A stretch of DNA of 64,000 nt from Candidatus Subterrananammoxibius californiae (GCA_030586555.1 JAURAC010000004.1:37800-101799), one strand, 5' to 3'. Positions 2,384-35,314 are shown, numbered from the stretch's first letter. Program-made: numbers and translations. Notes: a model not told the origin generated them from the letters alone.

Positions 2384-2570
2384 ATATCCTTTTTATTTAA
2401 AGGTTATTTTGGATCAAGTCCTATTTTCCCTGTGAAAACACGAGGCACAGATACCCTCCCCAAAAGATGGCGGACAGGCAATGCTACATAAACTAAGCTA
2501 CAAGTTTTTGGGTTTTGAACGAGTCTTTTCTAATTGCATATGCTTAATAGGTAATAGGCTATAGGGAAAA

Positions 2571-2605
2571 CCATAACCTATAACCCATGACCCATAACCT
2601 ATCAC
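2571..2605. repeat. Heptanucleotide tandem repeat, 5 copies (ccataac ctataac ccatgac ccataac ctatcac)
   Basis: Read directly from the sequence. Intergenic, between nrdG and the NDT-like gene. Confidence 0.9.
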
Positions 2606-2615
2606 CTCTATTTTT

Positions 2616-3350: not shown

Positions 3351-3399
3351 TTTATTTTTCTTGGACAGACGTCTGTCATGTTGAGCCCTTCGGCGTTGC

Positions 3400-5796: not shown

Positions 5797-5812
5797 TGAG
5801 CCCTCCTCCTTT

Positions 5813-6280
5813 TTATTTCTTTTTATCTCCGGTTTTTATTAAAGGTTTCACTTCCTCTACAAAATCAGAAACATCTTTAAATTCCCTGTAAACGGAGGCA
5901 AACCTGACGTATGCCACATGGTCAAGCTCCTTGAGCTTTTTCATGATATATTCGCCAATGTATTTGGTGCTTACTTCCCTATCAAACTTATCATGTATGT
6001 GACGCTCAAGTTCGGTAACAATATCCTCGAGGGTTTCCGTAGATACAGGTCTCTTCTCACATGCTCTCACTAACCCAGCCATTACCTTACTGCGGTCAAA
6101 GCTAACCCTTCTGCCATCCTTTTTGATTACGCGTATAGGGCTTTCCTCAATCCTTTCGTGTGTCGTATAGCGCCTTCCACACTTGTAGCATTCACGTCTC
6201 CGCTTAACGATAAGACCGTCGCCAGACGTCCTGGAATTGACCACCTTATCATTGTTTTCCTTGCAAAAGGGACATCTCAT
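5813..6280 (-). CDS. nrdR: Transcriptional repressor NrdR
   Basis: MRCPFCKENNDKVVNSRTSGDGLIVKRRRECYKCGRRYTTHERIEE zinc ribbon plus ATP-cone, 155 aa. Confidence 0.95.
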   Translation of the reverse strand: MRCPFCKENNDKVVNSRTSGDGLIVKRRRECYKCGRRYTTHERIEESPIRVIKKDGRRVSFDRSKVMAGLVRACEKRPVSTETLEDIVTELERHIHDKFDREVSTKYIGEYIMKKLKELDHVAYVRFASVYREFKDVSDFVEEVKPLIKTGDKKK

Positions 6281-6310
6281 AAAAGATACCCTCCAATTTT
6301 AATCATATTT

Positions 6311-6355
6311 ACAATATGTTGAGTGAGTAATATATACCATACAATATATTGTATG
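6311..6355 (-). promoter_or_regulatory. Two tandem NrdR-box-like operators upstream of nrdR
   Basis: Perfect palindrome catACAATATATTGTatg (6338-6355) and a weaker acaatatgttgagt (6311-6324), offset by 30 nt. They resemble the 16-bp NrdR box acaCwAtATaTwGtgt, which usually occurs in pairs about 3 helical turns apart. Confidence 0.6.
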
Positions 6356-6384
6356 TCAAATAAATTTTTTTCTAAAAGTCGTAG

Positions 6385-7872
6385 CTACTTACCTATGCAA
6401 AAGTTGGAGAATATTTTATCGAGGATGTCCTCAGTGGTCGTCTCTCCAACCACTTCATCGAGGGTTTCCAGGGCTTCTCGCAAGTCAAGGGCTATAAGTT
6501 CATGAGTTCGTGCCTGTGCTGCCGCTTCCTTAGCGCATTCAATTAGTTCAAGAGTACGTTTAAAAGCAGCCTTATGTCGGGCATTCAGGGTTACAGCAGA
6601 TGCTGATTGGTCTATTCTGCCATCGTGAATAGTTCTAACCATGGCATTTTTCAAATCACCGAGCCCTTTACCTGTAACTGTGGAGGTCTTTACAATAGGA
6701 TGCCCTTTGAAATCCTCCGGTAAGGGCGTATTGCAATACGCCCCTACAATATCGCACTTATTTATTACAATAATTTTTTGCAAGGAAGGGAAGGAATTGA
6801 AGAGTTCGATATCTTCATCTTCTACCGCTTTACTGCCGTCAAGGACAAAAAGGATGAGTTGACCCATTTGCAATGAGTTATATGCCTTTGCTATGGCAAG
6901 GGATTGTGGAGTTCGGAGTTCGGAGTTCAGAGTTCGGAGTTCGAATTGCAGAATGCCTGCAGTATCGAGGAGTCGGAAATGGACGTTCCCCAACTCTAAT
7001 ACACCCTCCAGGACATCCCTCGTGGTGCCTGGTATGGGGGTCACGATGGCTTGTCGTCTTCCAAGCAAGGCGTTAAAGAGACTTGATTTGCCCGCATTGG
7101 GGCGCCCGCATAAAACAGTCTTAACGCCATCCGAGTGCACAACGGATGTGGTGGCATTGTGGTTTAAAAAGCCATTCAGTTTCTCATAAATTATATTTAA
7201 TCTTTCGGTTATTTCACTAACAGGGGCAAACTCTATATCCTGGTCTGAAAAATCTATGGATGCTTCAATCTCGGCGCAACATTCTATCAGGTCGAGCTGA
7301 ATCTCCTTTACCTTTTTGGATGTGTTCCCTTTTAGATGTGAGAGGGCAGCCCTTAAATCTGCATCGGTACGTGAGCGTATTAAGCCCATTACTGCCTCAG
7401 CCTGCGTAAGGTCAATGCGCCCGTGGAGAAATGCCCTTTTTGTAAACTCACCCGGCTGTGCGAGACGAATACAGCTCTTTGAAGTCTGCTTTAAAGAGAT
7501 TAGAGCCTCAACAATCATATCAAGTATTGGTGGTGAGCCGAAGGTGTGTATTTCGACAACGTCCTCTTTGGTGTAAGAATAGGGGGCTTTCATTATGTAA
7601 AGGGTTGAAGGAATCTCGATTTGTTCATGAGGCAAATGTACATTGCCTTTAAAGAACAGGTATGTCCTGGGTTGCATATTGCGAATTGCAGAGCGCTGAG
7701 TTTCTCCGTTAAGCACGGACAAACGAGTTTGTCCATGCCACCCTGCGGTTGGAATAAAGAGACGTTCTGCGCAAAAGAGGGCATCAGTGCCGCTTATCCT
7801 GATAATTGCGCAAAGGGAACTTCCTGATGGAGTGGAAAGTGCTACAATGGTGTCCTGTGAATCCTGATACAT
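6385..7872 (-). CDS. mnmE: tRNA modification GTPase MnmE, carrying two in-frame repeat-derived insertions
   Basis: 495-aa ORF. DTIVALSTPSG N-terminus, G1 GRPNAGKSSL, DTAG, NKCD, C-terminal CIGK. Confidence 0.9.
   Translation of the reverse strand: MYQDSQDTIVALSTPSGSSLCAIIRISGTDALFCAERLFIPTAGWHGQTRLSVLNGETQRSAIRNMQPRTYLFFKGNVHLPHEQIEIPSTLYIMKAPYSYTKEDVVEIHTFGSPPILDMIVEALISLKQTSKSCIRLAQPGEFTKRAFLHGRIDLTQAEAVMGLIRSRTDADLRAALSHLKGNTSKKVKEIQLDLIECCAEIEASIDFSDQDIEFAPVSEITERLNIIYEKLNGFLNHNATTSVVHSDGVKTVLCGRPNAGKSSLFNALLGRRQAIVTPIPGTTRDVLEGVLELGNVHFRLLDTAGILQFELRTLNSELRTPQSLAIAKAYNSLQMGQLILFVLDGSKAVEDEDIELFNSFPSLQKIIVINKCDIVGAYCNTPLPEDFKGHPIVKTSTVTGKGLGDLKNAMVRTIHDGRIDQSASAVTLNARHKAAFKRTLELIECAKEAAAQARTHELIALDLREALETLDEVVGETTTEDILDKIFSNFCIGK
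6908..6942. repeat. Heptamer tandem repeat (ggagttc x5, one variant) inside the mnmE CDS
   Basis: Read directly. Encodes ...FELRTLNSELRTP... immediately after the DTAG (G3/switch II) motif. Confidence 0.9.
7713..7743. repeat. 31-nt hairpin element gcacggacaaacNNgtttgtccatgccaccc inside the mnmE CDS
   Basis: Same element as 20345..20376, 20397..20427, 35232..35258, 52814..52844 and 55303..55332. Encodes GWHGQTRLSVL within the MnmE N-domain. Confidence 0.85.
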
Positions 7873-7951
7873 GAAAAATGCAACCGCTTAAAACCCCCTG
7901 TACCCAGACGTCTGGTTGCGGGGCTATAAAGCCAATAGATTTTTAGCTACG

Positions 7952-9703
7952 TTATTTTACTTTTGGTAGTTTGCTCGGCACACTCTGTACGGAAACGATG
8001 CCGTACCGCTTTTTAACAATCCTTCGGATAAGAAACTGCTCGCCTATACTGAGTAATGTACTTGTTGTCCAATAGAGCGTAAGGCCAGAGGGCATATTGT
8101 AAAGTATAAAGGCAAAGATGATTGGCATAAATGCCATCATTTTTTGTTGGGCTTGCTGTTGAGGGTCAGGAGATTTTGGCGTCATACGTGTTTGTATAAA
8201 TGATGCAATCGTCATAATTATTGGAAGTATGTTAAGCATGTTGCCTATTACGGGCAGCGAAAAAGGCAAATGGGTTAAGGTATCAGGCCTGGAAAGGTCA
8301 TTAATCCAGAAGATAAAAGATGCTTGCCTCATCTCAAAGGAGAGTTGAAGTGTGCGAAAGAGGGCAAAGAATACAGGCAGTTGAAAAACCATTGGCAGGC
8401 ATCCTCCCATGGGATTAACGCCATGCTTTTTAAACAATGCCATCTGTTCCTGCCCCATCTTTTGTTTATCACCCTTATGTTTTTCCCTTAACTTACCAAT
8501 CTCTGGCTGAAGTTTCTGCATCCTGTACATGGACACCTGACTTTTCTTTGTAAGGGGGAAAAGAAGCGACTTGACCAGCAAGGTTAACATTAGTATGGAT
8601 ACGCCGTAATTGTGCGTAATGCCATAAAAGAAATTCAGTATTTTTATCAAATACTTGCATATTGCGCTTGTCCAACCGTAATCTATAAGGAAAACCAGAT
8701 TTCCATATTGGGAAAGAACTTCCTCTTGTTTAGGTCCTATATAATAGATATAAGCATGTCTTTCAGCTCCGTGGGGGAGAATCTCTATTTTAGTTGTTTC
8801 CAGTTTAACAGTCAGGTTTAACATATCGGAAGGTTCGAGCTTGGTGACCATCTGTGATACTGCGGCATCTACAAGTTCACTTGTATCGGGTTTTAATACT
8901 GCGGCAAAATATTTGTTATTAACGCCTGCCCAGGAAATCCCTTTTGACTCATTCCTATAAGGTGTTTCAAGGTCTGCTGGGTACTTTCTGTTCACACCCC
9001 CGCGTCCGACATCAATCCTTGTAACGGTGGCTATATCATATTTAGGGTCGCCCTCCCGAAGGATTCCTGTTGCAGCCGTAAAGGTGTATCTGGTATTAAT
9101 ATTGGAATCGCTGGTATTTTCCAAAATTACGTCAATATCTATATGATATTTGCCAGGCTGTAGTGCAACGCTCTTTGTAATTTTTAAGCCATTTTCCATC
9201 ATTGCCTCAAAGACAATTTTGTTTGAAGTTTTCTCTTTGACTGTATATCTGAGATTTTCGATGGGGTATTTCCAGTCAGGTATACCAATGGTTAAATGAT
9301 AAGGGCCATTTTCTTCGGATTTCAATAGCTCTAATACCTCTTTACCATCCTGGTCTTTGAATCTTTTTAATTTTGCAGAGATGAGCGCAGCGCCCTGGTT
9401 GGTCCAGAGCGTTTTGAGTTCGTCATTTTCAAGCACAATGTCCTTCTCCAATTCTATTTGGAATAATGGAGGACTCGTTGAAATCAAGTCCGAAGAACTT
9501 GCTTCCAACTCTTCTGTTTTTGTGGGACTTACAGGCGTAATCTCTGGCTTACTCGGCATTTCCTCCGCAGGTGTAAGAGGCTTCTGGCTAACTGTTTCCT
9601 CAGAAACAGGTTCCTGTGGTGCGTAATACTTTTGCTGTATTGCGATATAAACCACAAATAATACGCCGCAAAGCGCAATAGCAAGTAAGGCTTTTTTATC
9701 CAT
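7952..9703 (-). CDS. yidC: Membrane protein insertase YidC
   Basis: 583-aa ORF with an N-terminal TM, a large periplasmic domain and the conserved C-terminal core (LLVKSLLFPLTKKS, QPEI..L..K, GCLPMVFQLPVFFALF). Adjacent to mnmE, as in many bacteria. Confidence 0.9.
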   Translation of the reverse strand: MDKKALLAIALCGVLFVVYIAIQQKYYAPQEPVSEETVSQKPLTPAEEMPSKPEITPVSPTKTEELEASSSDLISTSPPLFQIELEKDIVLENDELKTLWTNQGAALISAKLKRFKDQDGKEVLELLKSEENGPYHLTIGIPDWKYPIENLRYTVKEKTSNKIVFEAMMENGLKITKSVALQPGKYHIDIDVILENTSDSNINTRYTFTAATGILREGDPKYDIATVTRIDVGRGGVNRKYPADLETPYRNESKGISWAGVNNKYFAAVLKPDTSELVDAAVSQMVTKLEPSDMLNLTVKLETTKIEILPHGAERHAYIYYIGPKQEEVLSQYGNLVFLIDYGWTSAICKYLIKILNFFYGITHNYGVSILMLTLLVKSLLFPLTKKSQVSMYRMQKLQPEIGKLREKHKGDKQKMGQEQMALFKKHGVNPMGGCLPMVFQLPVFFALFRTLQLSFEMRQASFIFWINDLSRPDTLTHLPFSLPVIGNMLNILPIIMTIASFIQTRMTPKSPDPQQQAQQKMMAFMPIIFAFILYNMPSGLTLYWTTSTLLSIGEQFLIRRIVKKRYGIVSVQSVPSKLPKVK

Positions 9704-10627: not shown

Positions 10628-12196
10628 TTACTTTATCCTCTCCTCTACTAAATAGACGTCTCCACCTTTTCTGACAAGATAATGGAAACTGTCAGGTGAA
10701 TCAAAGATAATCCTTCCTCCTCCAAGTGTAACAATGTTATCGTATTGCTTCCCCTCTTTCCCATCCACGACTACAAACCGCTTATCACCAGTCCCAGTGC
10801 CATAAGCCACATGCTCGCTGTCAGGGCTGAAGACGGGAGTGCCTGTCATGACGGCATCATAATGATTCTCCTCCTTCCCATCCACAACCACAAATCGCCT
10901 ATCGCCCACCCCGGCACCATAAGCCACACGCCTGCTGTCAGGGCTGAAGATGGGAGTGCCAGCCATGATGGTATCATATCGCTCCCCCTCTTTACCATCA
11001 ACAACCACAAAACGTCCGTTGCCTATTTGAGCCACATAAGCCACTCGTTTGCTATCGGGGCTGAAAATAAGTGTACCTGCCCCAATGCCATCGTAATGCT
11101 TCTCCTCCTTCCCATCCACAACCACAATCTGCCTATTGCCTTCAATAGCCCCATAAGTCAGCCGCTCGCTGTCCAGACTGAAGATGAGCGTACCTGCCCC
11201 GATAGTATCGTATTGTTTCTCTTCTTTCCCATCAACAACAACAAACCGTTTGCCGCCCACTTCAACTACATAAGCCAATCGCTTGCCGTCCGGGCTGAAA
11301 GCGAGAGGACATGAACCTGCCGCCATGACGACATCATATTGCTTCCCTTCTTTTCCGTCCACAACCACAAACCGCTTATCGCGAACCCCAGCCGCATAAG
11401 CTACTTGCTTGCTATCCGGGCTGAAGATGAGAGTGCCTGCCATGATGCCATCATATTGCTTCTCCTCTCTCCCATCCACAACCACAAGCCACTTATTGTC
11501 AACTTTAGCCAGGTAAGCTACACGCTTGCTATCAGAGCTGAAGATGGGCGTGCCTTTCCCGATGAAATCGTATTGCTTCTCCTCCTTCCCGTCCACAACC
11601 ACAAACCAGTAAAAGCCTGCTCCAGCCACGTAAGCCATACGATTACTGTCAGGACTAAAAATGGGCGGGCATCCGATGCTATCATAATGCTTTCCCTCCT
11701 GCCCATCCATAACCACAAACTGCTTATTGCTTTCTTTAGCTACATAAGCCACATGTTTGCCGTCGGGGCTAAAGGCAAGAGAGTTCCCCGCTATGCCATC
11801 GTAGTGCTTTTCCTCTTGCCCGTCCACAACCATAAACTGTTTACCACCGACCCCAGCGGCGTAAGCGACTCGCCTGCCGTCAGGGCTGAAGATGGGGGTG
11901 CCAGACCCGATAACATCGTAATGCTTTCCCTCCTTCCCATCTACGACTACAAACCACTCAACATCCGCTTTAGCCACATAAGCCACCCGCCTTCCATCAG
12001 AGCTTACCTTAAAACTCTCCTGTATCCACGAAGAAGGGTCAACTTTAGTAATAAGTTTTTCGGATACTGTCCTATCCTGAAATAAATTCAGAACAGGTTC
12101 TGGAGATTTTTCCTCTGCACGGGCTGCTACTATGCCAATGCAAATAAAGGAAACAACCAAATATAATACTATACCTTTTCTGGACATTTCTGACAT
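10628..12196 (-). CDS. Secreted/anchored PD40 (TolB-like WD40) beta-propeller repeat protein, 11 tandem ~42-aa modules
   Basis: 11 repeats of FVVVDGKEGKxYDxIGxGTPIFSPDSKRVAY. N-terminal hydrophobic segment IVLYLVVSFICIGIVAARA. Start uncertain: 12196 or 12187, while the ORF runs to 12238 through a repeat element. Confidence 0.75.
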   Translation of the reverse strand: MSEMSRKGIVLYLVVSFICIGIVAARAEEKSPEPVLNLFQDRTVSEKLITKVDPSSWIQESFKVSSDGRRVAYVAKADVEWFVVVDGKEGKHYDVIGSGTPIFSPDGRRVAYAAGVGGKQFMVVDGQEEKHYDGIAGNSLAFSPDGKHVAYVAKESNKQFVVMDGQEGKHYDSIGCPPIFSPDSNRMAYVAGAGFYWFVVVDGKEEKQYDFIGKGTPIFSSDSKRVAYLAKVDNKWLVVVDGREEKQYDGIMAGTLIFSPDSKQVAYAAGVRDKRFVVVDGKEGKQYDVVMAAGSCPLAFSPDGKRLAYVVEVGGKRFVVVDGKEEKQYDTIGAGTLIFSLDSERLTYGAIEGNRQIVVVDGKEEKHYDGIGAGTLIFSPDSKRVAYVAQIGNGRFVVVDGKEGERYDTIMAGTPIFSPDSRRVAYGAGVGDRRFVVVDGKEENHYDAVMTGTPVFSPDSEHVAYGTGTGDKRFVVVDGKEGKQYDNIVTLGGGRIIFDSPDSFHYLVRKGGDVYLVEERIK

Positions 12197-12233
12197 CCTT
12201 TTTTCTTGGATTATTTCGCAAACCGCCTCTCTT

Positions 12234-12302
12234 GTCATGCCGAACTCGTTTCGGCATCTCCTTCCCTCGGGTAAAGAGACCCTGAAACAAGTTCAGGGTG
12301 AC
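12234..12302. repeat. REP-like double hairpin element (gtcatgccgaactcgtttcggcatctc ... accctgaaacaagttcagggtgac)
   Basis: Two short stem-loops (gccgaa/ttcggc and ccctgaa/ttcaggg) read directly. Intergenic, between scpA and the PD40 gene. It generates spurious ORFs on both strands. Confidence 0.6.
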
Positions 12303-14133: not shown

Positions 14134-15303
14134 GTGAAGCACACAGATTTTATAAATTCAACATCAGGGAACTGCATAAAAACATCAAAAGGATATTGGG
14201 CATTTATGCCTAATCCTCTGCCACCTCAAATTGATTACGACAAAAGCCTTATCAGACATCTTTCCGAGGCAGATAGATTATTAGGGGAATTGTCAGGAAC
14301 AGGAAGATTGCTACCTAACCCTTATCTTCTAATTAACCCATATATTCATCGTGAGGCTGTGTCAAGTTCACGAATTGAAGGAACACAAGCCTCGCTTAGC
14401 GACTTATTCTTCTTTGAAGCGGCAGAATTTGAAGAGCCTAAAGTACCCGATGTTCGAGAGGTTCGTAATTATGTTCGTGCTATGGAGTATGGGATTGACC
14501 GTTTGAAAGAATTACCTATATCCATAAGATTAATTCGTGAGATTCACAAGGTATTAATGGAAGGAGTCAGGGGCGAACAAGCTACACCTGGGGAACTTCG
14601 CCGTAGCCAGAACTGGATAGGACCACGGGGATGTCTACTTAATGAAGCCACCTATGTACCACCACCTATAAAAGAAATGGCACAGGCACTAAGCGATTGG
14701 GAAAAATATCTACACGCAAATCCCGATGAACCTCCATTAATCCAATGTGCCATGGCACATTATCAGTTTGAGGCAATCCACCCATTTCTCGATGGTAACG
14801 GACGTATTGGAAGACTTTTAATTACTTTCTTTCTTTGTGAAAGAGGGTATCTAACTCAGCCGCTTCTTTATTTGTCAGCATTCTTTGACAGGTTTCGAGA
14901 TGAATATTACTCAAGGCTACTTGCTGTTAGCCAAAGGGGAGATTGGCGGGGTTGGATTGAGTTTTTCTTACGTGGAATGGCGAATCAATCAAAAGAGGCT
15001 ATATCAGATGCTAAGAAAATACTCGATTTGCATACAGAATATCAAGAGGCGCTCGAAAAAACAACTAAGAAAATCCCGGAATCTGCCCATAGGCTGATTG
15101 ATGAGATTTTTTTAAATCCTGTAATTTCTATCTCTGGACTGAGCAAAAAATGGAATATGTCTTTTAACTCCGTAAAAAAAGGTGTGTCGAGGCTTATTGA
15201 AATAGGTATACTTCGTGAAGTTACAAAGAGAAAAAGAAAAAGACTCTTTATTGCGCACAAATTAATGAAGTTATTGACTTCGACAGACATAGTAAGACAT
15301 TAA
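14134..15303 (+). CDS. fic: Fic family protein (AMPylase-type) with an intramolecular inhibitory motif
   Basis: HPFLDGNGRIGR Fic motif and an N-terminal SSRIEG matching the (S/T)xxxE(G/N) inhibitory helix. The C-terminal ...GILREVTKRKR looks wHTH-like. GTG start per the ORF track. Confidence 0.85.
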   Translation: MKHTDFINSTSGNCIKTSKGYWAFMPNPLPPQIDYDKSLIRHLSEADRLLGELSGTGRLLPNPYLLINPYIHREAVSSSRIEGTQASLSDLFFFEAAEFEEPKVPDVREVRNYVRAMEYGIDRLKELPISIRLIREIHKVLMEGVRGEQATPGELRRSQNWIGPRGCLLNEATYVPPPIKEMAQALSDWEKYLHANPDEPPLIQCAMAHYQFEAIHPFLDGNGRIGRLLITFFLCERGYLTQPLLYLSAFFDRFRDEYYSRLLAVSQRGDWRGWIEFFLRGMANQSKEAISDAKKILDLHTEYQEALEKTTKKIPESAHRLIDEIFLNPVISISGLSKKWNMSFNSVKKGVSRLIEIGILREVTKRKRKRLFIAHKLMKLLTSTDIVRH

Positions 15304-16035: not shown

Positions 16036-16261
16036 TATAGGAAAAGGCAGGATTATGTCAACCTAAATACATGTTTATTTTCCAACTGGGCAATGTCTAT
16101 TTTAGGGCTCACATTTTTGAAAAAAAATAACGTATCAGAAAGCGGCTTATATCGCAATTTCAAGGCATGGGATTGTTCGCCACGGCGAATCCCGCCTGAG
16201 GTGGGTCTGTGGGAAGTCCCAGGGGCATCCTCTGGTAAATGCCTCAGGCATGACTTCGCCT

Positions 16262-16552
16262 TCGGCTCGCAATATCCAATACGAATGTTTCATGAATAGT
16301 AAGGTTCTGACAAATTCTCGAATGTCACCAAGGCAGATAAAAAAATATTGTGCGCTCGACCCCCATGCGGAGACGCTCCTGCACCAGGCAATGATAGAAC
16401 TTGGCTTATCTGCCCGTGGATACAACAAGATTCTCAAGGTTTCCCGCACAATAGCAGACCTCGATCCGCCTCAGGCGGACGAAAACATCAAGGTCGAACA
16501 TATCTCTGAAGCAATACAGTACAGGAGCCTGGATAGGGGGCTGTGGAGGTAA
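16262..16552 (+). pseudogene. comM: 3'-terminal remnant of comM/yifB (Mg-chelatase-like AAA ATPase)
   Basis: [66 protein letters not shown]...[13 protein letters not shown] matches only the last ~95 aa of ~500-aa ComM/YifB proteins. No upstream part is present; nadD lies there on the other strand. Confidence 0.7.
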
Positions 16553-16554: not shown

Positions 16555-16622
16555 TTGAATCCCCCTCCTCTTAAAAGAGAACCTGGATACTGAAATAAGC
16601 AGAAATAAATCTGTCCCCTTTT
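16555..16622. repeat. Left copy of a composite repeat flanking the AT-rich island (36-nt unit A, 11-nt spacer, 21-nt unit X)
   Basis: A = ttgaatccccctcctcttaaaagagaacctggatac (16555-16590). X = gaaataaatctgtcccctttt (16602-16622). Compare 19158..19213. Confidence 0.8.
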
Positions 16623-16867
16623 CTCGAAATATGAAACCGAGAGGCAAGGCGAAGCTTGCCGCTTAGGTAAAATACACAGACTCTTGAAGTTTTTCTCTGG
16701 ATTTTTCATTTTTAAAGTGTCGGCCCAAAGCCATCTCATCTGAAATGACAAACTTTTACTACTTCGTTTTGTCGAAAAAAATATAAATTATATTGCATAT
16801 CTGTAAAGAAAATGTACAATATATGGGACTAATAACTCATTAAACACCATTAGTTCATTTTAAAAAT

Positions 16868-17461
16868 ATGCAGGATAAGATATTTTCCAAGTTCAATATA
16901 TACGATCAAATAGGTTATTTAATGGTAGGCGGTATAGGCCTCCTTGTAGTCATTGTAGACTTTCGTTTTCTTAATATTTCAAGCCTCCTTCCCCAGTTTA
17001 ATACACAAACTTTTATTGCCTGGTTTCTATTCGCATATTTTCTTGGTCACATACTACAAGCAATTTCAAATTTCTTAGTTATAGAAAATAAGTCAGAATT
17101 TTCCGCTTCTGAAGAAGAAATTTTAATTAAAGCCAAAGAGTACTTTGGTCTTGAAAAGCAATCCTCAGAAGAACTATATAAATATTGCTATATGCTATCT
17201 TCGGCAAAGGACATTACGGGACAAGTGCAATCCTTTAATGCTTACTATAGTCTTTACCGCGGCTGGTTTATAATTTTTACATTTGAATCAGTATTTCTCT
17301 TGGTATTTGTTATAGCAAATTGGTTTAGTTGGCATTTTATATCACTTGTTCTATCAATTTTATTGGCAATTTTATTTTTTATAAGGTTGAAACGGTTTTA
17401 TAATTATTCAAGAGCTAAAACATTGCAAACGTTTATCTTATTAACGAAGTTAGGACTATGA
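16868..17461 (+). CDS. Four-TM membrane protein of unknown function (first gene of the island)
   Basis: 197-aa ORF with two hydrophobic helices at the N-terminus, a ~60-aa soluble helical insert and two helices at the C-terminus. Very AT-rich. ATGA overlap with the next gene. Confidence 0.6.
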   Translation: MQDKIFSKFNIYDQIGYLMVGGIGLLVVIVDFRFLNISSLLPQFNTQTFIAWFLFAYFLGHILQAISNFLVIENKSEFSASEEEILIKAKEYFGLEKQSSEELYKYCYMLSSAKDITGQVQSFNAYYSLYRGWFIIFTFESVFLLVFVIANWFSWHFISLVLSILLAILFFIRLKRFYNYSRAKTLQTFILLTKLGL

Positions 17462-18852
17462 TTAAATTTCATTTCTTAAATGTAGGACATGGAGATACAA
17501 CAATAATTGAACTTCCAGACGATGAGTTAATGCTGGTTGATTTTAACCGCGATATTGAATTTGATGATGAAACTGCCAAAGAATTGGCAGAAATATACAA
17601 AATAGATTTTAACAAATTAGAAAAGAGTAAAAAATATTATTCTGAGATATCAAAGTATTATAATATATTACTTGATGATTCGCTGACCTATTTAAAAGAA
17701 AATTTTGAGGATAAAAACATTTTTAGGTATATTCAGACTCACCCTGATATTGATCATCTTGCTGGTTTTAAAGCATTAACCGAAAATTTTTCGATTGTTG
17801 ATTTCTGGGATACAGACCATGAAAATATTGAGAAAACCGACTTTAAAAATGATTCAGATGAAGAGGATTGGAAACACTATCTTGAATTCAGGAAAAACAA
17901 AAAGAAAATATATTATAGATCATCAAATAAAATTAGTAGTAATGATCAAACTTATCCATACAAAATATACGTGTTTCATCCAACAAGGGAAGCTTTAGTA
18001 GATGGAGATTCAAAAGAAAATCCCCAACCAAATTTTTTTAGTTACTTAATTTTAATTGATTACAATGGATTTAAGACTGTTTTAGGTGGTGATGTTACAG
18101 AAAAATATTGGAAAGATTTATGGGAATGGTTAGAAGATAACGAATCGGCTAAACAGTTGTTTAAAGACATTCATGTTCTTAAAGCTTCTCATCATGGAAG
18201 AAAATCTGGACGGTGTGGATGGGAAGAAAAGAAGATCTATAAAAGAGATTTTCTAAATTGGATGAATCCTGAAAACGTTATTATTTCTGTAGGCAAAAAA
18301 CCGGAAAATTGCGATGCAACAGAATGGTATAGAAAAAAGTCAGATGGTTCAAGCAGGAACGTGCTGACGACTAGATGGTATGGAACAGTTTGGTCTTCGT
18401 ATGATGGCACAACTCCATTCGATAAAGAAAAGATCAAAATAGAAACAAGGTATGACAGAAAAGATAGTGAAGACCACATAAAACAGTTAGCTATACCTAT
18501 AAAGGAGTCAGGCTACACATTTAAAATTGGGGCTCAAAGATGTGCCTTGAAATCCGGTCCTTTTAGAGAGGAATATAAAAAAGGAGGGAGGGCACTAACA
18601 AAAAATATGTGGCTAAAGTTTTATGTCAAAAAAACTGATATACCAGAGCCATTTGAGGTTAAATGGAGGGTTGTTAATACAGGAGAAGAGGCAAGGCTTG
18701 CGGAAGATTTAAGGGGTAGAATTGAAGATGATAAAGGGTTTAAGGCTAAGAGAGAGCAAACAAAATATAAAGGAACGCATTTTATGGATTGTTTTGCCAT
18801 AAAAGATGGAGTTTGTGTAGCAAAAGACAGGTTTTATGTTAATATAAAGTAA
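17458..18852 (+). CDS. ComEC-like metallo-beta-lactamase-fold hydrolase with an extra ~115-aa C-terminal domain
   Basis: FHFLNVGHGDTTIIELPDDELMLVDF, THPDIDHLAGF (HxHxDH variant) and ASHHGRKSG resemble the ComEC/Rec2 MBL domain. The C-terminus carries FEVKWRVVNTGEEARLAEDLRGRI...GTHFMDCFAIKDGVCVAKD. Confidence 0.7.
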   Translation: MIKFHFLNVGHGDTTIIELPDDELMLVDFNRDIEFDDETAKELAEIYKIDFNKLEKSKKYYSEISKYYNILLDDSLTYLKENFEDKNIFRYIQTHPDIDHLAGFKALTENFSIVDFWDTDHENIEKTDFKNDSDEEDWKHYLEFRKNKKKIYYRSSNKISSNDQTYPYKIYVFHPTREALVDGDSKENPQPNFFSYLILIDYNGFKTVLGGDVTEKYWKDLWEWLEDNESAKQLFKDIHVLKASHHGRKSGRCGWEEKKIYKRDFLNWMNPENVIISVGKKPENCDATEWYRKKSDGSSRNVLTTRWYGTVWSSYDGTTPFDKEKIKIETRYDRKDSEDHIKQLAIPIKESGYTFKIGAQRCALKSGPFREEYKKGGRALTKNMWLKFYVKKTDIPEPFEVKWRVVNTGEEARLAEDLRGRIEDDKGFKAKREQTKYKGTHFMDCFAIKDGVCVAKDRFYVNIK

Positions 18853-19157
18853 ACTTTATCTATTGTTGTTTCATCCATCAAACGTCAAAGATTGCTTTAT
18901 AATGGTTTAATCTTTAATGATTTTAAAAAAGGCATCTATACCCGTACTTTGCATACCATAGTTAGGGGTAACTAAAGTGAAGCCGGATACGTTGTTTTTG
19001 GGGAAGCTGTGATACTATAAACGAACTACATTACCTTCTAAATCCACGAAATAAACAAGGGCCCACTATGGTTCTTTTCTCTGAACTCGAAGTGCCACTT
19101 TTTCAATCGGCCAAGTCTTATTTTTCCTCATTGCTGTCCAAAATAATTCAAAAGGCG

Positions 19158-19213
19158 AAAAGGGGACAGATTTATTTTTGAATCCCTCTCCTCTTAAAAG
19201 AGAATCTGGACAC
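19158..19213. repeat. Right copy of the composite repeat flanking the AT-rich island (inverted X abutting direct A)
   Basis: aaaaggggacagatttattt (19158-19177) is the inverse of X. ttgaatccctctcctcttaaaagagaatctggacac (19178-19213) matches A at 33 of 36 positions. Confidence 0.8.
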
Positions 19214-19222
19214 AAAATTTAG

Positions 19223-20323: not shown

Positions 20324-20950
20324 ATGACCAATTTGTCTTGCTTTGCACGGATAAACACAGTTTATCCGTGCCACCCTTTACCCCACCCAGAACCCAGGGT
20401 GGCATGGACAAATTCATTTGTCCGTGCCGTTCCCTGTGTAATAATTCTATTCTTTTCATCCGTATTCTTACAAGTCGGGGATAATTTTGCGGCAGGCGGC
20501 TGCCACTGGTGGGATACTGGTATTTATGAAGTGGGAGCGGGACGTTTGTGTATAATAAGCAATACGGAAGGTTCTGCCGAGAACTTCGCACAGGGAGATA
20601 CGTCAGGCAGATGCGGTCCCATAAAGGTAAATAAGGGGAGTACCGTTGCCTTTAAGTCTGGATTTGGGTACGAGATGGTATGGTATAGCAACGCCACAGG
20701 CACACAATCATTAAGTGTAACGGTAGAGCTTTCCAGAGATGGGCAAAACTGGGAGTCTTACGACTCAACGGAACACCGCTATTTTGAGACAGGACCAAAA
20801 ATTCATGCTAACAGTGTTGACGTCTGGGTAGAATTCAACGAGGTCGGCACTGTCTACGTCAAAACAATCCTCACCGCCGTATCTCATCCCGTTGACGGGG
20901 CTGAACAGCAGGTTATAGATGAGGTCATTACAGAGGTTAATGTGGATTAA
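20324..20950 (+). CDS. Hypothetical secreted protein; its C-terminal domain is paralogous to that of the preceding gene
   Basis: aggag RBS 8 nt before the ATG at 20324. The VNKGSTVAFKSGFGYEMVW region resembles IRMGTRVFFKTGYGFIWAA in 19462..20307. The N-terminal ~35 codons are repeat-derived, so the start is uncertain. Confidence 0.45.
   Translation: MTNLSCFARINTVYPCHPLPHPEPRVAWTNSFVRAVPCVIILFFSSVFLQVGDNFAAGGCHWWDTGIYEVGAGRLCIISNTEGSAENFAQGDTSGRCGPIKVNKGSTVAFKSGFGYEMVWYSNATGTQSLSVTVELSRDGQNWESYDSTEHRYFETGPKIHANSVDVWVEFNEVGTVYVKTILTAVSHPVDGAEQQVIDEVITEVNVD
20345..20427. repeat. Two inverted copies of the 31-nt hairpin element, 20 nt apart
   Basis: gcacggataaacacagtttatccgtgccaccc (20345-20376) and gggtggcatggacaaattcatttgtccgtgc (20397-20427). 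Confidence 0.85.
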
Positions 20951-20975
20951 CCTGTTAGAAGACAGAAGGGAAAAA

Positions 20976-23633
20976 ATGAAGAAGAAAAAGAAGATGTTTT
21001 ATGGATTTGCGTTTAGTATGATTTTGCTATTTGCCTTAACTCATAATAGTGGTTATGCTAACTGGGAATCCCATGGTATTGGTGGAGGCGGCGCACTGTA
21101 TTCAGCTTCAATAAGCCCACACGACCCACAGGTTATCTACATCGCCTCCGACATGACAGGAGTCTACCACACCGCCAATTTCGGCATTAGCTGGGAGACT
21201 ATTGACTTTAAGCAGCTTCAGGGTGGTATTGATACCAATGTTTGCTTTACCTCAGACCCATCCATCCTCTACGCCCTGCAAGTCACGGGAGACGATGCAC
21301 GCAGGCCAGCGAAAAGCATAGATGGAGGCGCAACATGGACGCCTCTACCTAATGACCCTACTTATGGAGAGACATTTTCACTCCGCGCTGACCCTAACTC
21401 AACCGAGCATCTTTTTGTGACAACATGGACTAAACTATACTTTTCAAGCGACGGCGGGGCAAGCTTCGATTTGGTTTATACTACCTCAAACTATGACGGC
21501 GGTTTGCACATCGCAGGCGTATTCTGGGATGGAAACAACATCTTCATAGGAACTCAGGACGGCCTACTTATCTCATCAAATGGAGGCACCAGCTTTGCCC
21601 TCTCCCCATACAATGGTATCCCATCTGGCGAGTATGTAGTCTCGTTTGCCAGCGCCAAGGAGGGAAGCGCCATTCGCTTTTTTGTCGTTACCTATGATAG
21701 CGTCTTCGCTGGCATTACAGGCGGCGAGGTATGGAATTATAAAAACGTCTATCGCCTTGATTGGGGACAAGGTAACTGGACTAAAAAGATTAACGGCATC
21801 CAGGATTGCGACCACCCTTTCTTTGTTGGTATGACCCTCAATGATGTGGACGTCGCTTACTTAGCAGGAGCCGCCATATATCCATGCTTTGGACCCATTG
21901 TCTATAAAACAACCGATGGCGGTAACACATGGAATAGCATTTTCTTGACCGACAACAACCAGAATATCGCAACCGGCTGGAGCGGCGATGGCGGCGACGA
22001 AGACTGGTGGTATGGCGAATATGTGCTGGGCTTTTCGGTATGCCCCAATAATTCAAACCGCGTCATCATTACCGACCTGGGTTTTGCACACGTAACAGAC
22101 GACGGCGGTGCCAACTGGCGACAGGCATACGTTGAACCCGCTTACGAGAACCCTGCAGGTAGCCCCACGCCTAAGGGTAGGTACTACCATGGCAATGGCT
22201 TAGAGGACACAAGTTCCTGGTGGCTTCACTGGACAGGTCAGAGTACAATAATTGCCGGCTTCTCCGACATCAATGGAACCCGAAGCGGCGATAATGGCAA
22301 TACATGGGCTGCTGGCTCGAGTCTTGGCTTACCACACAATAGTACATACTGCATCATCGGGCACCCAACAAACGGTAAGCTCTACGCTGCGACCTCATCG
22401 GTGCATGACTTATATGAAAGCACTTACCTGCAAGACAGCCGAATCAACGGAGGGACAGGTTCATTGGTCATGTCAGACGACGAGGGCCAGACCTGGCAAA
22501 CCCTCAAGAACTTTAGTCATCCTGTAATCTGGCTTGCCATCAATCCAAATGACACAGAAACCATGTACGCCAGTGTGGTTCATAGCACCCTGGGAGGAAT
22601 TTACGTTACACACAATCTTAGCGACGGTGCCTCTGCAACATGGACCAAGCTGGGCAACCCACCCCGAACCGAAGGTCATCCTTATAACATTCATGTATTG
22701 AATGACGGCGCACTGGTGGCAACTTACTCAGGCAGGCGCAATACATCTGGCGCCTTTACTGAGAGTTCCGGGGTATTCATCAGCACTAATGGCGGCAATA
22801 CGTGGCTGGACCGTAGCGACACAGGCATGAGGCGATGGACCAAGGACATTGTTATAGACCCCAACGACCCGAATCAGAACACCTGGTACGTAGCTGTATT
22901 TAGCCACTGGGGAAGCTATCCAAATGAGGTCGGAGGCATTTACCGAACAACCAATCGGGGCCAGAGCTGGATGCGCATCAGCGATTCCTATAGAGTGGAG
23001 TCTGCTGCGATTCATCCGGATAACCCCAATGTCTTATACTTTTCCACCGAGACTGAGGGCTTGTGGCGCACTGATAATCTAAATGATACCTATCCAACGT
23101 TTACCCAGGTGGGAGATTACCCGTTCCGACACCCGGTTCGCATCTTCTTCAATCCCTTAAACCACAACGAGATTTGGGTAACCAATTTCGGTGGCGGGCT
23201 ATGGGTGTACACAGAGGATGGGGGAACCACCACAACTATATCTACTACAACAACCACAACGCTGACGCCAGTAACCACCACCACCACTACTACTACTATT
23301 ACTACTACTACAAGTACAACCACAACAACGCTGGCAAAGATATGCCGCACATGTCCTACTATGTTTTATGTAAAAAAGGGCAAGACTAAATGCAAGCCAT
23401 TCTGGATATGGAATTGTGGGGGAGGAACGTTGAGTTGGACGGTTAGCAAGGATTGCAACTGGCTGACGCTCAGTCCGTCAAATGGAACGTCCACAGGAGA
23501 GGATATTAGAGTAACGGCTTGCGTTAATACTGCCGGTATGGTTAAGGGCGATTATCAATGTACCGTGACCATCACTGGAGAGGGTGCATCAAACTCTCCG
23601 CTGAAGTGCATAATCAGGTTGACGGTTAAATAA
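20976..23633 (+). CDS. Secreted BNR/sortilin-type beta-propeller protein (GH74-like) with a poly-Thr linker and a BACON-like C-terminal domain
   Basis: Signal peptide MKKKKKMFYGFAFSMILLFAL. Nine or more SxDxGxTW BNR motifs (SIDGGATW, TTDGGNTW, SDDEGQTW, STNGGNTW...). [36 protein letters not shown] linker. The Cys-rich ...GGTLSWTVSKDCNWLTLSPSNGTSTGE domain follows. Confidence 0.7.
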   Translation: MKKKKKMFYGFAFSMILLFALTHNSGYANWESHGIGGGGALYSASISPHDPQVIYIASDMTGVYHTANFGISWETIDFKQLQGGIDTNVCFTSDPSILYALQVTGDDARRPAKSIDGGATWTPLPNDPTYGETFSLRADPNSTEHLFVTTWTKLYFSSDGGASFDLVYTTSNYDGGLHIAGVFWDGNNIFIGTQDGLLISSNGGTSFALSPYNGIPSGEYVVSFASAKEGSAIRFFVVTYDSVFAGITGGEVWNYKNVYRLDWGQGNWTKKINGIQDCDHPFFVGMTLNDVDVAYLAGAAIYPCFGPIVYKTTDGGNTWNSIFLTDNNQNIATGWSGDGGDEDWWYGEYVLGFSVCPNNSNRVIITDLGFAHVTDDGGANWRQAYVEPAYENPAGSPTPKGRYYHGNGLEDTSSWWLHWTGQSTIIAGFSDINGTRSGDNGNTWAAGSSLGLPHNSTYCIIGHPTNGKLYAATSSVHDLYESTYLQDSRINGGTGSLVMSDDEGQTWQTLKNFSHPVIWLAINPNDTETMYASVVHSTLGGIYVTHNLSDGASATWTKLGNPPRTEGHPYNIHVLNDGALVATYSGRRNTSGAFTESSGVFISTNGGNTWLDRSDTGMRRWTKDIVIDPNDPNQNTWYVAVFSHWGSYPNEVGGIYRTTNRGQSWMRISDSYRVESAAIHPDNPNVLYFSTETEGLWRTDNLNDTYPTFTQVGDYPFRHPVRIFFNPLNHNEIWVTNFGGGLWVYTEDGGTTTTISTTTTTTLTPVTTTTTTTTITTTTSTTTTTLAKICRTCPTMFYVKKGKTKCKPFWIWNCGGGTLSWTVSKDCNWLTLSPSNGTSTGEDIRVTACVNTAGMVKGDYQCTVTITGEGASNSPLKCIIRLTVK

Positions 23634-25336
23634 TGAAAAGCACTACCCAACAGAAACAATTAATTGTGTTGCTATTATTCATGTTCATTGCTTGTGCCAG
23701 CATACCTCCTTGTGGTGTGGTTCGCGCTGACGGTGTTACTGACCCAACCCAGATTCTTACCCCGGCTCCATTGCCCCTGCAACCTGTGGGTACTCCCTTC
23801 ATGGACCCGGTCTTCGATACTTCTCTGCGCCGCGTCTCCAATACCAGCGATAGTGGAGGTTTTGAAACCCAAACTTATTCCCAACTCCAGGCATTCTCAT
23901 CTGACAATGCCTACATACTGTTAAGTGGCTCAAACGGCTACGTCATCCGTCGTTTGAGCGACCTCAGTCTGGTAGCAGGTCTGGACACCTCAGAGTGGAA
24001 TGCTCCTCGCTGGCACCCTGTCATGTCCCACACCCTCGTCCACTTTGACAGTAACGCTGACACAACCATCCGTCTTCAATTCACGGACGTGGATACATTT
24101 ACCACTACCACAGTTTTCACCTTTCCATCTCAATACAATTACATACTGGTCAATCAATCCTTTGACGAAATTTCGGAGGATGGACGGTGGCTGGCTGGAA
24201 TGGTCATCCGTAACGACAGGAAAAGGGTCATCTTTGCACTGGATGTTCAGAATGGCGTCCTGACGGTGGAGTTGCCAATCTCTGATTTATATGCCGGCGA
24301 CTGCCAGCCTGACCCAGAGTGGGGTGAGGTCGAGCCGGACTGGGTGGGGGTCTCGCCGTTAGGCAGATACCTGGTAGTACAATGGAAGCGTGACGGCATC
24401 ACCCGATGTAGTGGTATGGAAACCTTCGACCTGCAAACAGGCAATTTCGTAGGGCGCGTATACGATGGTCACCAGCACGGCGACCTTGGTATAGATTCTG
24501 ACGGTACTACAGAGTTCTTCATGACATTCGAGATGTCTTCAACCTTTGATAACAATCGCCCCGCAATCGGCATGCGTGAACTACCCGGCACGCCCACCGT
24601 CAGTCAGCCCTCTTACTTGCAGGTGTTGGACTGGGGAAATGCCGGCCATATTTCTTGCCGGGGTCCCAACGGTGTAGGCCTTATATCATGCAATGGTTGG
24701 AATGTTAATGGCTGGAATCCTTTTGAGAGGGAACTCTTCCTTCAATACACAGACGGTTCCGTCCTGCGACTCGCCCACCATCGTTCCAGCAGTTGCGGTT
24801 ACTGGGTTCAACCACGTGCAAGCATTTCACGCGATGGCCGCTATATAGTCTTCACCTCCGATTGGGGACAGGAAACGGGAATGAACAGTTGCAACGTCTG
24901 GAATGACCCACTGGGAGCAGGTGACCCGTACATTATTGACCTTGGAGATAATGCCACGGGCAGCACAACAACTACCACTACAACTACGACTATAAGTACA
25001 ACAACTTCTTCAACTATTACAACGACGTCTACTACGACTACAACCGTTGTATGCCAGTGTCCTGCCGATAGTTCTAAGGGATGTATATCAGGCACTGTGA
25101 AAAATCGTACAGGTAACCCGCTTGCAAAAAAGACCGTAAGACTAAAGAGAATATCCCCGAAAAAACCTTATGCCGCAATGAATGTTGTAACAGGTAACGA
25201 CGGTTGCTATCGCTTCACCAATCTTAAGAACGGCACATACGAGATAAAGGTAAATAGTTGCAATGGTGGGGGCACAAAAACTGTAGATGTCACTGCTGGT
25301 GGTAAGGTAAATGATGTGAATTTTCAGTGCAGATAG
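23633..25336 (+). CDS. Secreted protein with a poly-Thr linker and a carboxypeptidase-regulatory-like C-terminal domain
   Basis: 567-aa ORF with a signal-like N-terminus and a [29 protein letters not shown] linker. The C-terminal CISGTVKNRTGNPLAKKTVRL...NDGCYRFTNLKNGTYEIKV is the CarboxypepD_reg pattern. 1-nt overlap with the previous gene. Confidence 0.6.
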   Translation: MKSTTQQKQLIVLLLFMFIACASIPPCGVVRADGVTDPTQILTPAPLPLQPVGTPFMDPVFDTSLRRVSNTSDSGGFETQTYSQLQAFSSDNAYILLSGSNGYVIRRLSDLSLVAGLDTSEWNAPRWHPVMSHTLVHFDSNADTTIRLQFTDVDTFTTTTVFTFPSQYNYILVNQSFDEISEDGRWLAGMVIRNDRKRVIFALDVQNGVLTVELPISDLYAGDCQPDPEWGEVEPDWVGVSPLGRYLVVQWKRDGITRCSGMETFDLQTGNFVGRVYDGHQHGDLGIDSDGTTEFFMTFEMSSTFDNNRPAIGMRELPGTPTVSQPSYLQVLDWGNAGHISCRGPNGVGLISCNGWNVNGWNPFERELFLQYTDGSVLRLAHHRSSSCGYWVQPRASISRDGRYIVFTSDWGQETGMNSCNVWNDPLGAGDPYIIDLGDNATGSTTTTTTTTTISTTTSSTITTTSTTTTTVVCQCPADSSKGCISGTVKNRTGNPLAKKTVRLKRISPKKPYAAMNVVTGNDGCYRFTNLKNGTYEIKVNSCNGGGTKTVDVTAGGKVNDVNFQCR

Positions 25337-35017: not shown

Positions 35018-35231
35018 TTCAAATTTTCTAAAGAGCTGGGTGACTACTGCACCCATTCCCACGCTCAGCGCGGTGGAAGCTCCGAGCTTCCGAGGTGTAA
35101 GAGAGCAATCTCCATGCCATCAGTACACAATATTACCTATAAGTTGATGTTGCTAAAGAAGGAGGTCCAATGGTAAAATGATGTAGGAGTTAACTCTTTA
35201 TAATTAAAGGAGTTCCACCATTAGGTAGGAG

Positions 35232-35258: not shown

Positions 35259-35314
35259 CTCAAGCCACACTGGAGGGTAGAAATGAAGGTGTTCAACTTT
35301 TGGGGGATTTTTAT

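Follow-up and report, generated by a model that had tools for sequence, protein, structure and literature searches.

A stretch of 64,000 nucleotides from Candidatus Subterrananammoxibius californiae (GCA_030586555.1 JAURAC010000004.1:37800–101799), referred to below as the window, contains a two-gene unit on the plus strand. The first gene (nt 16868–17461) encodes a membrane protein of 197 residues with four transmembrane (TM) segments. The second (nt 17458–18852) encodes an enzyme of 464 residues, in which a ComEC-type metallo-beta-lactamase-fold (MBL) hydrolase is followed by a C-terminal AGS-C domain. Judged by its sequence, the pair is a module of a Csx27-family TM protein and a ComEC-like MBL enzyme, kin to the candidate system PDC-M48 and to the 6A-MBL system, that has captured an AGS-C domain. 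It is a horizontally acquired two-gene cassette and, as its sequence and relatives suggest, probably an anti-phage module, which supports an initial annotation of the window in which the locus was marked as a candidate conflict module. We hold it moderately probable that the pair acts as a membrane-associated DNase defence module gated by AGS-C as a sensor, without a second messenger. The TM+MBL core has been predicted previously; the AGS-C-fused variant is the new part.

Both genes were delimited by open reading frame (ORF) calling. The stop codon of the TM gene and the start codon of the MBL-AGS-C gene overlap in an ATGA (CTATGATT at nt 17456–17463), and the second gene is translationally coupled to the first via this overlap. 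The two are not chance ORFs: the enzyme has 508 homologues and the TM protein 196, and hidden Markov model (HMM) E-values go down to 1e-34. HMM scans with Pfam, PADLOC and NCBIfam detected no nucleotidyltransferase domain in either protein. The initial annotation was thus right about the ATGA overlap, which the sequence bears out, and its statement that no cyclase belongs to the pair is supported.

The hydrolase and its AGS-C domain

Residues 1–331 of the enzyme (nt 17458–18450, plus strand) constitute the ComEC-type MBL-fold hydrolase domain. Alignment places the metal-ligand motifs NVGHGD at residues 8–13 (nt 17479–17496), THPDIDH at 94–100 (nt 17737–17757), FHPT at 173–176, GGD at 210–212, and SHHGRKSG at 244–251 (nt 18187–18210). 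In 16 full-length homologues with 46–76% identity, N8–D13, H95/D99/H100, H174, D212, and H245/H246 are invariant or nearly so. The enzyme displays the ligand set of the MBL superfamily (D; HxDxDH; H; D; HH) together with its alpha-beta/beta-alpha fold. By these alignments, the catalytic motifs of the hydrolase are intact and ComEC-like.

The fold points to the same relatives. The AlphaFold2 (AF2) model of the whole enzyme has a predicted local distance difference test (pLDDT) value of 89.9 and a predicted template modelling score (pTM) of 0.90, and the MBL and AGS-C domains are therefore modelled in what would be a fixed arrangement. The top PDB match found by Foldseek is 9ic4, the beta-lactamase-like domain of Moorella ComEC (E 2.3e-15, template modelling score 0.74). 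When the family profile was compared with all PDB sequences, only ComEC proteins were recovered, with every MBL motif aligned to 9ic4/30bt. The ComEC/Rec2-type motifs read in the initial annotation are hence confirmed by alignment, by fold, and by sequence match to the PDB. The Pfam Lactamase_B match is weak (14.6 bits versus a cutoff of 22.7). Among the PADLOC models, PDC-M48B matches residues 76–279 with an E-value of 1e-14, and RTasMBL was also matched. The MBL domain of ComEC has an established nuclease activity. MBL-fold proteins in defence, such as the trypsin-MBL proteins in Avs2, Hachiman, and others, are Zn-dependent dsDNA nucleases.

The likeness to ComEC/Rec2 is confined to the hydrolase. 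Both share the same motif set (GxGD; HPDxDH; HHG), ComEC is the closest protein by fold and by sequence, and a membrane component is present in both. However, ComEC/Rec2 proteins (TIGR00361) carry a channel domain and an OB fold on the MBL polypeptide, and the window enzyme has neither; its membrane part is a separate, unrelated four-TM protein. The window MBL also differs from that of ComEC by an extra helical insert of ~35 residues between motifs 1 and 2. Competence/ComEC models of Pfam and NCBIfam gave no match to the window proteins. The enzyme, 464 residues long, lacks a TM segment and a signal peptide and is predicted to be cytoplasmic.

The tail of the enzyme, which the initial annotation had set apart and likened to AGS-C, is a beta-sandwich domain of its own and carries the domain named. 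Residues 337–464 (nt 18466–18849, plus strand) match Pfam AGS_C (PF18134) from position 3 to 129 of the 129-position profile, with 118.6 bits versus a cutoff of 26.7 and an E-value of 2.4e-34. In the AF2 model residues 356–463 are all-beta with pLDDT above 90, an immunoglobulin (Ig)-like sandwich that Foldseek matches to the AGS-C domain of EcPycC (9ard_A; E 3.3e-4, template modelling score by target 0.59). The enzyme also matches the PADLOC 'Cyclase' model of CBASS (cyclic oligonucleotide-based antiphage signalling system) and the PycC model of Pycsar (pyrimidine cyclase system for antiphage resistance); these matches are confined to the C-terminal AGS-C part of the models, for instance positions 308–509 of 509. 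The Ig-like AGS-C domain, suspected of adjusting the sensing of phages or its specificity, occurs on about 40% of type I CD-NTases (cGAS/DncV-like nucleotidyltransferases). Phages that escape AGS-C-bearing type I CBASS have been reported with changes in the capsid and in the prohead protease. Its usual place is C-terminal to a cyclase or to a SMODS/CD-NTase, whereas the N-terminal domain here is an MBL hydrolase. On the strength of the profile match, the MBL fusion is a new context for AGS-C that leaves the identity of the domain unaffected.

The AGS-C domain alone gave 963 matches among 1.84 billion representatives. SMODS is present in 46 of the 57 nearest full-length AGS-C proteins and a DncV-like nucleotidyltransferase domain in 28; the only MBL fusions among them outside the enzyme's own family are P0282 and P0379. 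The signature W403, N407, G409, A412, E433, G439, and H441 is common to MBL-fused and CD-NTase-fused AGS-C, which suggests that the two have the same molecular function. A rough neighbour-joining tree groups the MBL-fused AGS-C domains into nearly one clade. The same tree places the AGS-C of P0282, a protein 26% identical overall, nearest to a CD-NTase domain, a position that may point to a second, separate fusion.

Type I CBASS and Pycsar therefore offer the closest comparison for this half of the enzyme. Their C-terminal AGS-C and its signature are the same, and the nearest relatives of the domain outside the MBL-fused family lie on CD-NTases. The layout, a small TM protein and an enzyme ending in AGS-C, is also shared, as in Pycsar-2 and in the Lactococcus SLATT + CD-NTase/AGS-C pair. 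The catalytic domain differs: it is a nucleotidyltransferase or cyclase in those systems and an MBL hydrolase in the window, and since the domain is a hydrolase, no cyclic-nucleotide messenger is expected from the window pair. The membrane partner differs as well, being Csx27-like and not SLATT, Cap15, or any other known CBASS effector.

Whether AGS-C receives a nucleotide signal bears directly on how such a pair would work. The initial annotation had proposed that it does: AGS-C would be a second-messenger receptor, through which the nuclease and the TM protein respond to a cyclase encoded elsewhere. Pfam indeed names AGS-C a 'sensor domain', and at one homologous locus (L004) a CBASS of the Patatin+SMODS kind lies about 2 kb upstream of the fusion pair. 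However, AGS-C sits on the enzymes that make the signal and not on the effectors of CBASS/Pycsar, and its Ig-like fold is discussed as a module for phage sensing or specificity, with no nucleotide binding reported in the literature found. A cyclase gene does not consistently accompany the fusion pair; among the loci examined it is present only at L004/L130. The 64-kb window holds no other AGS-C-bearing ORF, and the two-gene unit moves alone between contexts. Because AGS-C is borne by signal makers, not receivers, and no cyclase is consistently at hand, a receptor of this kind is very unlikely, and the nucleotide-sensing part of the annotation is not upheld.

The fusion has a wider meaning. Carried with its signature unchanged on a probable nuclease, AGS-C proves to be a portable module, regulatory or sensory, that is independent of the synthesis of a nucleotide messenger. 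The fusion bears on the trigger of type I CBASS and Pycsar and on the task of AGS-C in them. As a one-enzyme system with DNA cleavage as its read-out, the fusion could serve in hunting for the AGS-C ligand.

The membrane partner and the conserved gene pair

The TM protein contains four hydrophobic segments, arranged as 2+2 around a helical insert. The Kyte-Doolittle profile and the loop charges agree on this, and the AF2 model, built from 30 homologues with a pLDDT of 91.3, has helices at residues 11–34, 49–70 / 80–93, 100–113 / 119–150, and 157–195. The two short loops are uncharged. The N-terminus, the insert (residues 71–118), and the C-tail are charged, the C-tail being basic. From this distribution, the protein is predicted to be N-in/C-in, with its conserved N-terminus, helical insert, and basic C-tail in the cytoplasm. 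A structure search with the fold gave no PDB match (best E 1.5), and no recognisable ligand-binding domain was found by Pfam scan, PDB fold search, or scans of family members.

The relatives of the TM protein are found in the Csx27 superfamily. PADLOC Csx27 matches it over nearly the full length with an E-value of 1.7e-4, and the NCBIfam model matches weakly, at 19.3 bits versus a cutoff of 65. A stronger link runs through the TM partner at locus L009, which matches Csx27 at full length (PADLOC 1.3e-13, NCBIfam 40.5 bits) and the window-family HMM at 2.6e-17; the partner at L012 also matches Csx27 (1.5e-8). The transitive link through the L009 partner makes the Csx27 relationship of the family solid. 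As the window protein itself falls below the model cutoff, we regard it, by sequence, as a relative within the Csx27 superfamily and not as an equivalog or Csx27 itself. The 2+2 arrangement around a helical insert in a 197-residue protein had been noted in the initial annotation, and both AF2 and hydropathy confirm it; the likeness to SLATT effectors suggested there found no support. No Pfam SLATT family matched at E ≤ 1, and none matched in 30 family members scanned singly.

The TM gene and the MBL gene travel together. Their pairing is widespread and close, being present in almost every one of the roughly 140 loci examined, and the linked genes of the initial annotation are in homologues a conserved adjacent pair. 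Every fusion gene examined has a TM gene beside it (L001–L009, L107/108, L123/125, L130, L136, L154–156), usually upstream and overlapping, and once downstream (L008). When an iterated TM HMM was applied to fetched loci, a TM homologue adjoined nearly all of 76 stand-alone MBL genes. Within those 20-kb loci the HMM matches almost solely the gene adjacent to the MBL, and this positional control argues that the matches are not compositional drift. Conversely, among 66 metagenomic loci found by the TM protein (40–62% identity), almost all that are long enough have an adjacent MBL, which is an AGS-C fusion in nine.

The fused form is rare. Among 5.8 billion proteins it makes up about 18 clusters (90% identity), and no AGS-C-fused copy occurs among 185,579 GTDB species representatives, where the MBLs are stand-alone only. 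Stand-alone MBL relatives number in the hundreds, with lengths of about 285–350 residues and 35–40% identity. The conserved core is therefore TM+MBL, to which AGS-C has been added on occasion. Several fusion loci harbor an extra stand-alone MBL paralogue of the PDC-M48B kind, placed either ahead of the TM gene or behind the fusion gene (L001 nt 6224–7018, L002 nt 6439–7248, L107 nt 3856–4761, L108 nt 8018–8923, L154 nt 354–1238); the window has no such paralogue. No relatives were found in IMG/VR viral contigs. A phage origin was considered and rejected, as BFVD likewise yielded only generic MBL and Ig-like matches.

Operons of this core had been predicted before, by Makarova, Gao, Zhang & Koonin (FEMS Microbiol Lett, 2019). 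According to the summary of that work in PMC7642515, the authors predicted an association of a Csx27-family membrane protein, a ComEC-like gene, and a ubiquitin-like gene. The window pair resembles these Csx27 + ComEC-like MBL operons in placing a four-TM Csx27-family protein beside a ComEC-type MBL, and E1/E2/JAB genes are added in some relatives (here L097 and L004), with a distribution that is broad but patchy. Unlike them, the window enzyme has a C-terminal AGS-C. No cas13b or WYL/HTH gene lies near the pair in the window. No large HEPN-type ORF occurs within about 5 kb on either side, and a whole-window repeat scan revealed no CRISPR-like array.

PDC-M48 is a two-gene PADLOC candidate with an MBL B component. 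The M48B models, which the window enzyme matches as given above, cover the MBL part alone. PDC-M48A has no match to the window TM protein, and it matches weakly the TM partners at L023 (5e-4) and L009 (4e-3). To our knowledge, PDC-M48 is a candidate system without experimental validation.

The other relative is 6A-MBL (van den Berg et al. 2024, as cited in PMC13276650 and bioRxiv 2025.09.30.679545), which is listed among the known jumbo-phage defences. The operon at L097 (nt 2470–6594) encodes a 6A-MBL enzyme (NF058524, 384 bits versus a cutoff of 220), an E2_B+ThiF protein (Cap2-like), and a JAB protein (Cap3-like). The gene directly after them encodes a TM protein that shares 55% identity with the one in the window. 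The two systems (6A-MBL: NF058523/NF058524) thus share a central MBL-fold enzyme and, in the L097 operon, a TM homologue. The enzymes themselves are distant: that of the window scores 31.1 bits with 6A-MBL versus the cutoff of 220, and the window HMM misses the L097 enzyme. Cap2 and Cap3 are present in 6A-MBL, whereas the window pair has neither and is flanked by a ComM-like fragment and a gene with a PSCyt1 domain. Regulation would differ accordingly in kind, by ubiquitin-like conjugation in 6A-MBL and via the fused AGS-C in the window pair. At L097, two unannotated proteins of ~580 residues follow the TM gene and are possibly further components.

A more remote comparison is with the protease-activated MBL DNases (Avs2, Hachiman trypsin-MBL). 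There too an MBL is a latent anti-phage effector, though of another subfamily. It is activated by double proteolytic cleavage, while the window pair has no protease partner and carries an Ig-like domain instead.

The literature found contains no text on the MBL-AGS-C fusion, on PDC-M48, or on PF18134, the originals of Makarova 2019 and Burroughs 2015 being outside its coverage. The statement in the initial annotation that this is not a named system therefore stands for the AGS-C-fused form, which is undescribed there. It does not stand for the core, which had been predicted, is PDC-M48-like, and shares its TM protein with 6A-MBL. In sum of these relationships, the TM+MBL core has already been put forward, as a prediction or as a candidate, and its relatives include one validated defence system. 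Csx27-family membrane proteins, PDC-M48, and 6A-MBL can be joined as one family, whose regulatory variants, type I-like and type II-like, run parallel to those of CBASS. It is also suggested that the Csx27 of type VI-B CRISPR loci derives from a family of nuclease-partnering membrane proteins.

Proposed mode of action

In the preferred reading, the core of the module would be a metal-dependent phosphodiesterase of the ComEC type that works in the cytoplasm, most likely as a DNase. The Csx27-family TM protein would work with this enzyme and probably hold it at the inner membrane face. AGS-C would sense an infection cue, or tune the response to it, and gate the nuclease directly, a role taken to be the same as on the CD-NTases of type I CBASS and the cyclases of Pycsar. 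With AGS-C wired to the nuclease, no cyclic-nucleotide messenger would be needed. Activation of the nuclease would lead to the breakdown of DNA at the membrane, the target being either phage DNA that is entering or replicating or, in an abortive infection, the DNA of the host. It is from the architecture and the relatives that we infer the DNA substrate, the membrane tethering, the sensor role of AGS-C, and the anti-phage phenotype.

Several points weigh against this reading. The family is known from genes and predicted structures alone, and we know of no AGS-C ligand on record, even for CBASS. The second-best fold match of the enzyme is the phosphorylcholine esterase Pce, so the ComEC-like MBL clade is not limited to nucleic-acid substrates. 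As most TM+MBL pairs have no AGS-C, the domain appears dispensable for the core activity. The window is not a classic defence island, since the immediate neighbours of the pair, a SoFic gene apart, are housekeeping genes. Finally, as summarised in PMC7642515, the role that Makarova et al. 2019 proposed for the Csx27-family/ComEC-like operons is the uptake and degradation of DNA, and not phage defence.

That last proposal would make the pair a split ComEC-like device, with the TM protein as channel and the MBL as strand-degrading nuclease, that takes up or degrades extracellular or incoming DNA for nutrition, competence-like uptake, or plasmid exclusion. It agrees with the sole solved relatives being ComEC nuclease domains, and with stand-alone relatives being annotated as ComEC/Rec2 and weakly matching TIGR00361. 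Yet the channel domain and OB fold of ComEC are absent, there is no signal peptide, and the conserved parts of the TM protein are predicted to face the cytoplasm, which is the wrong side for extracellular DNA. Defence genes, and not competence genes, surround the pair, whose occurrence is patchy and cassette-like, and elsewhere AGS-C belongs to defence systems. A role in DNA uptake thus seems quite improbable.

A different alternative keeps the pair in defence and moves the MBL into the seat of the CD-NTase. On sensing infection, the MBL-AGS-C enzyme would generate a signal or act as a licensing enzyme, and the killing would fall to the true effector, the Csx27-like protein as a pore and, in some lineages, a patatin; we consider this rather unlikely. 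The signal would be a small molecule from phosphodiester hydrolysis or direct contact with the partner, and this we rate just as low. The argument for it is positional. The MBL occupies the place of the CD-NTase in two architectures, that with AGS-C in the window and that with Cap2/Cap3 at L097 and in the L004 trio described below, and its partners, TM proteins and patatins, are of the kinds usual among CBASS effectors; because of these two features the MBL may be a signalling or licensing enzyme. The AGS-C-bearing cyclases of Pycsar-2 are moreover paired exclusively with TM effectors.

The patatins deserve closer description. A patatin-like phospholipase gene of 330 residues directly follows the MBL-AGS-C gene in L004 (nt 7876–8868), L123 (nt 6362–7357), and L125 (nt 3390–4385). 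The patatin and TM+MBL-AGS-C genes travel there as one 3.2-kb block with 90% nucleotide identity among the three loci, and homology breaks after the patatin stop codon. The patatin is either a third component of this sub-lineage or a hitch-hiking single-gene system.

Against a signalling MBL, no MBL hydrolase is known as a maker of second messengers, and the nearest characterised relatives, ComEC and the MBL DNases of defence, are nucleases. No ligand-binding domain can be recognised in the TM protein, and neither the window nor most fusion loci contain a patatin. By analogy with CBASS, the full form of the idea, in which the MBL enzyme would functionally replace the CD-NTase in a CBASS-like circuit with the Csx27-like membrane protein as executioner, appears unlikely. 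If true, it would define a cyclase-free signalling branch of the immune superfamily, and it would offer a simple enzymatic read-out for the target that AGS-C senses.

The cassette and its neighbourhoods

The gene pair lies in a 2.6-kb low-GC cassette bracketed by direct repeats. The left copy (nt 16555–16599) is 45 nt long with a 31-nt core, GAATCCCCCTCCTCTTAAAAGAGAACCTGGA, and the right copy (nt 19178–19222), also of 45 nt, is 84% identical to it. Directly inside them are the arms of an inverted repeat, 24 nt each, at nt 16600–16623 and nt 19157–19180, which are 96% complementary. Both the direct and the inverted repeats have two copies each in the 64 kb, and shuffled sequences give an expectation of zero direct-repeat copies. 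The GC content of nt 16600–19180 is 0.324, versus 0.43 and 0.46 in the flanking 10 kb. The AT-rich, repeat-flanked setting described in the initial annotation is correct by GC profile and repeat scan, and the accessory origin proposed there is supported.

No recombinase gene is present inside the cassette. The layout of the repeats is as expected of attL and attR around an element mobilised in trans, and they may be candidates for such sites. Excision would leave a junction of inverted repeat, 45 nt, and inverted repeat, about 93 nt in all. The attC core consensus RYYYAAC / GTTRRRY was not evident in the repeat arms by eye, no covariance-model search for attC having been made. Nothing above chance was found around the cassette for RNA elements, tRNA genes, promoters, or terminators. 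A boundary motif, AAAAGG..ACAGA, was discarded as a conserved feature, as it is found in the window and L004 only and hence is not general.

On the left, the cassette abuts a remnant of comM. The ORF at nt 16250–16552 (plus strand, 100 residues) matches only Mg_chelatase_C of ComM/YifB (E 4e-25); the ATPase part is missing and nadD begins only ~215 bp upstream, which identifies it as a gene remnant. It ends 3 nt before the left direct repeat. In other bacteria, comM is known as a hot spot of integration. The gene downstream of the pair has a PSCyt1 domain, as in planctomycete-type cytochromes.

Mobility of the unit is also seen in its homologues. Between L004 and L108, a TM+MBL-AGS-C unit of 2,017 bp has 89% nucleotide identity with unrelated flanks. 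The shared stretch sets in about 20 bp ahead of the TM start codon and ends about 12 bp after the stop codon of the MBL-AGS-C gene. The two-gene unit moves as a module between unrelated contexts. In L155 (nt 2527–4165) and L156 (nt 3388–5026), the pair of a 70%-identical relative, P0004, is followed by genes for HU, YopX, and a short protein of the phage-integrase family, and these downstream genes place the pair on or beside a mobile element. Other repeats are found at the homologous loci. L001 has an 83-nt repeat in three copies (nt 5866–5948, 9220–9302, and 16968–17050), and an element of ~310 nt with a perfect 24-bp hairpin recurs in L004/L123/L125 (L004 nt 367–592 and 5254–5565; L125 nt 641–1001 and 5779–5905). 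Repeated intergenic elements between defence blocks suggest a cassette-array organisation of the defence systems.

Such a cassette could also be selfish, an addiction or toxin-immunity pair in which a toxic nuclease and a protective or partner membrane protein would stabilise the mobile element, with no role dedicated to phage defence. The tight, translationally coupled two-gene unit, the discrete low-GC cassette with terminal repeats, and the integrase, YopX, and HU neighbours in L155/L156 are compatible with this. A four-TM protein would, however, be an unusual antitoxin for a cytoplasmic nuclease, and the AGS-C and Cap2/Cap3 add-ons point to triggered immunity. The neighbours are for the most part defence systems and not plasmid-maintenance genes. 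We find a selfish role most improbable and return to the preferred reading, a gated nuclease of defence, with which the neighbourhoods can be compared.

The fusion loci sit among BREX, CBASS, restriction-modification, DISARM-like, and SoFic genes. L002 has PglZ/BrxL and PDC-S06. L004/L005 have the Patatin+SMODS CBASS and a distant 6A-MBL-like trio of Patatin/MBL/E1-E2-JAB. L008 encodes a methyltransferase, a SacI-type endonuclease, and Vsr; L105, L107, and L108 a methyltransferase and an HKD-Snf2 helicase; L125 a Type IIG restriction-modification enzyme; L006 a fragment of a type III endonuclease; and L001 a DEAD/MZB helicase with Phage_rep_O/DnaB. One candidate assignment was rejected: the neighbour at L004 is not a type II CBASS, its 355-residue gene product being a distant 6A-MBL-like enzyme and not a CD-NTase. 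Of the neighbourhood features that the initial annotation had named for checking in homologues, defence-gene neighbours and linkage to the TM gene were found, and consistent co-occurrence with CD-NTases was not.

In the window itself, a full-length SoFic-type Fic gene (nt 14134–15303, plus strand) is situated 1.5 kb upstream of the cassette, with nadD and the comM fragment between. It matches PADLOC SoFic with an E-value of 4.8e-127 and contains the Pfam domains Fic_N and Fic. SoFic is a known single-gene defence system. The other neighbours, ScpA, an M50 protease, and NadD, are housekeeping proteins.

Further repeats were noted elsewhere in the window. A palindromic element of ~33–36 nt, GCACGGACAAACGAGTTTGTCCATGCCACCC, occurs in both orientations at nt 7709–7744, 20395–20427, 35220–35263, 52810–52853, and 55299–55334, and resembles a REP-like (repetitive extragenic palindromic) intergenic repeat. 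The ORF at nt 10628–12238 (minus strand) encodes 536 residues with about 11 tandem repeats of 39 residues (117 nt; VAY.../FVVVDGKE.KxYD...), consistent with beta-propeller or TolB-like repeats. Threonine-rich linkers (TTTTTT...) are found in large secreted-looking proteins at nt 23117–23350 and 32091–32414, the latter coinciding with a 54-nt tandem repeat array at nt 32091–32414, and also in the C-terminal parts of the ORFs at nt 20919–23633 and 23633–25336.

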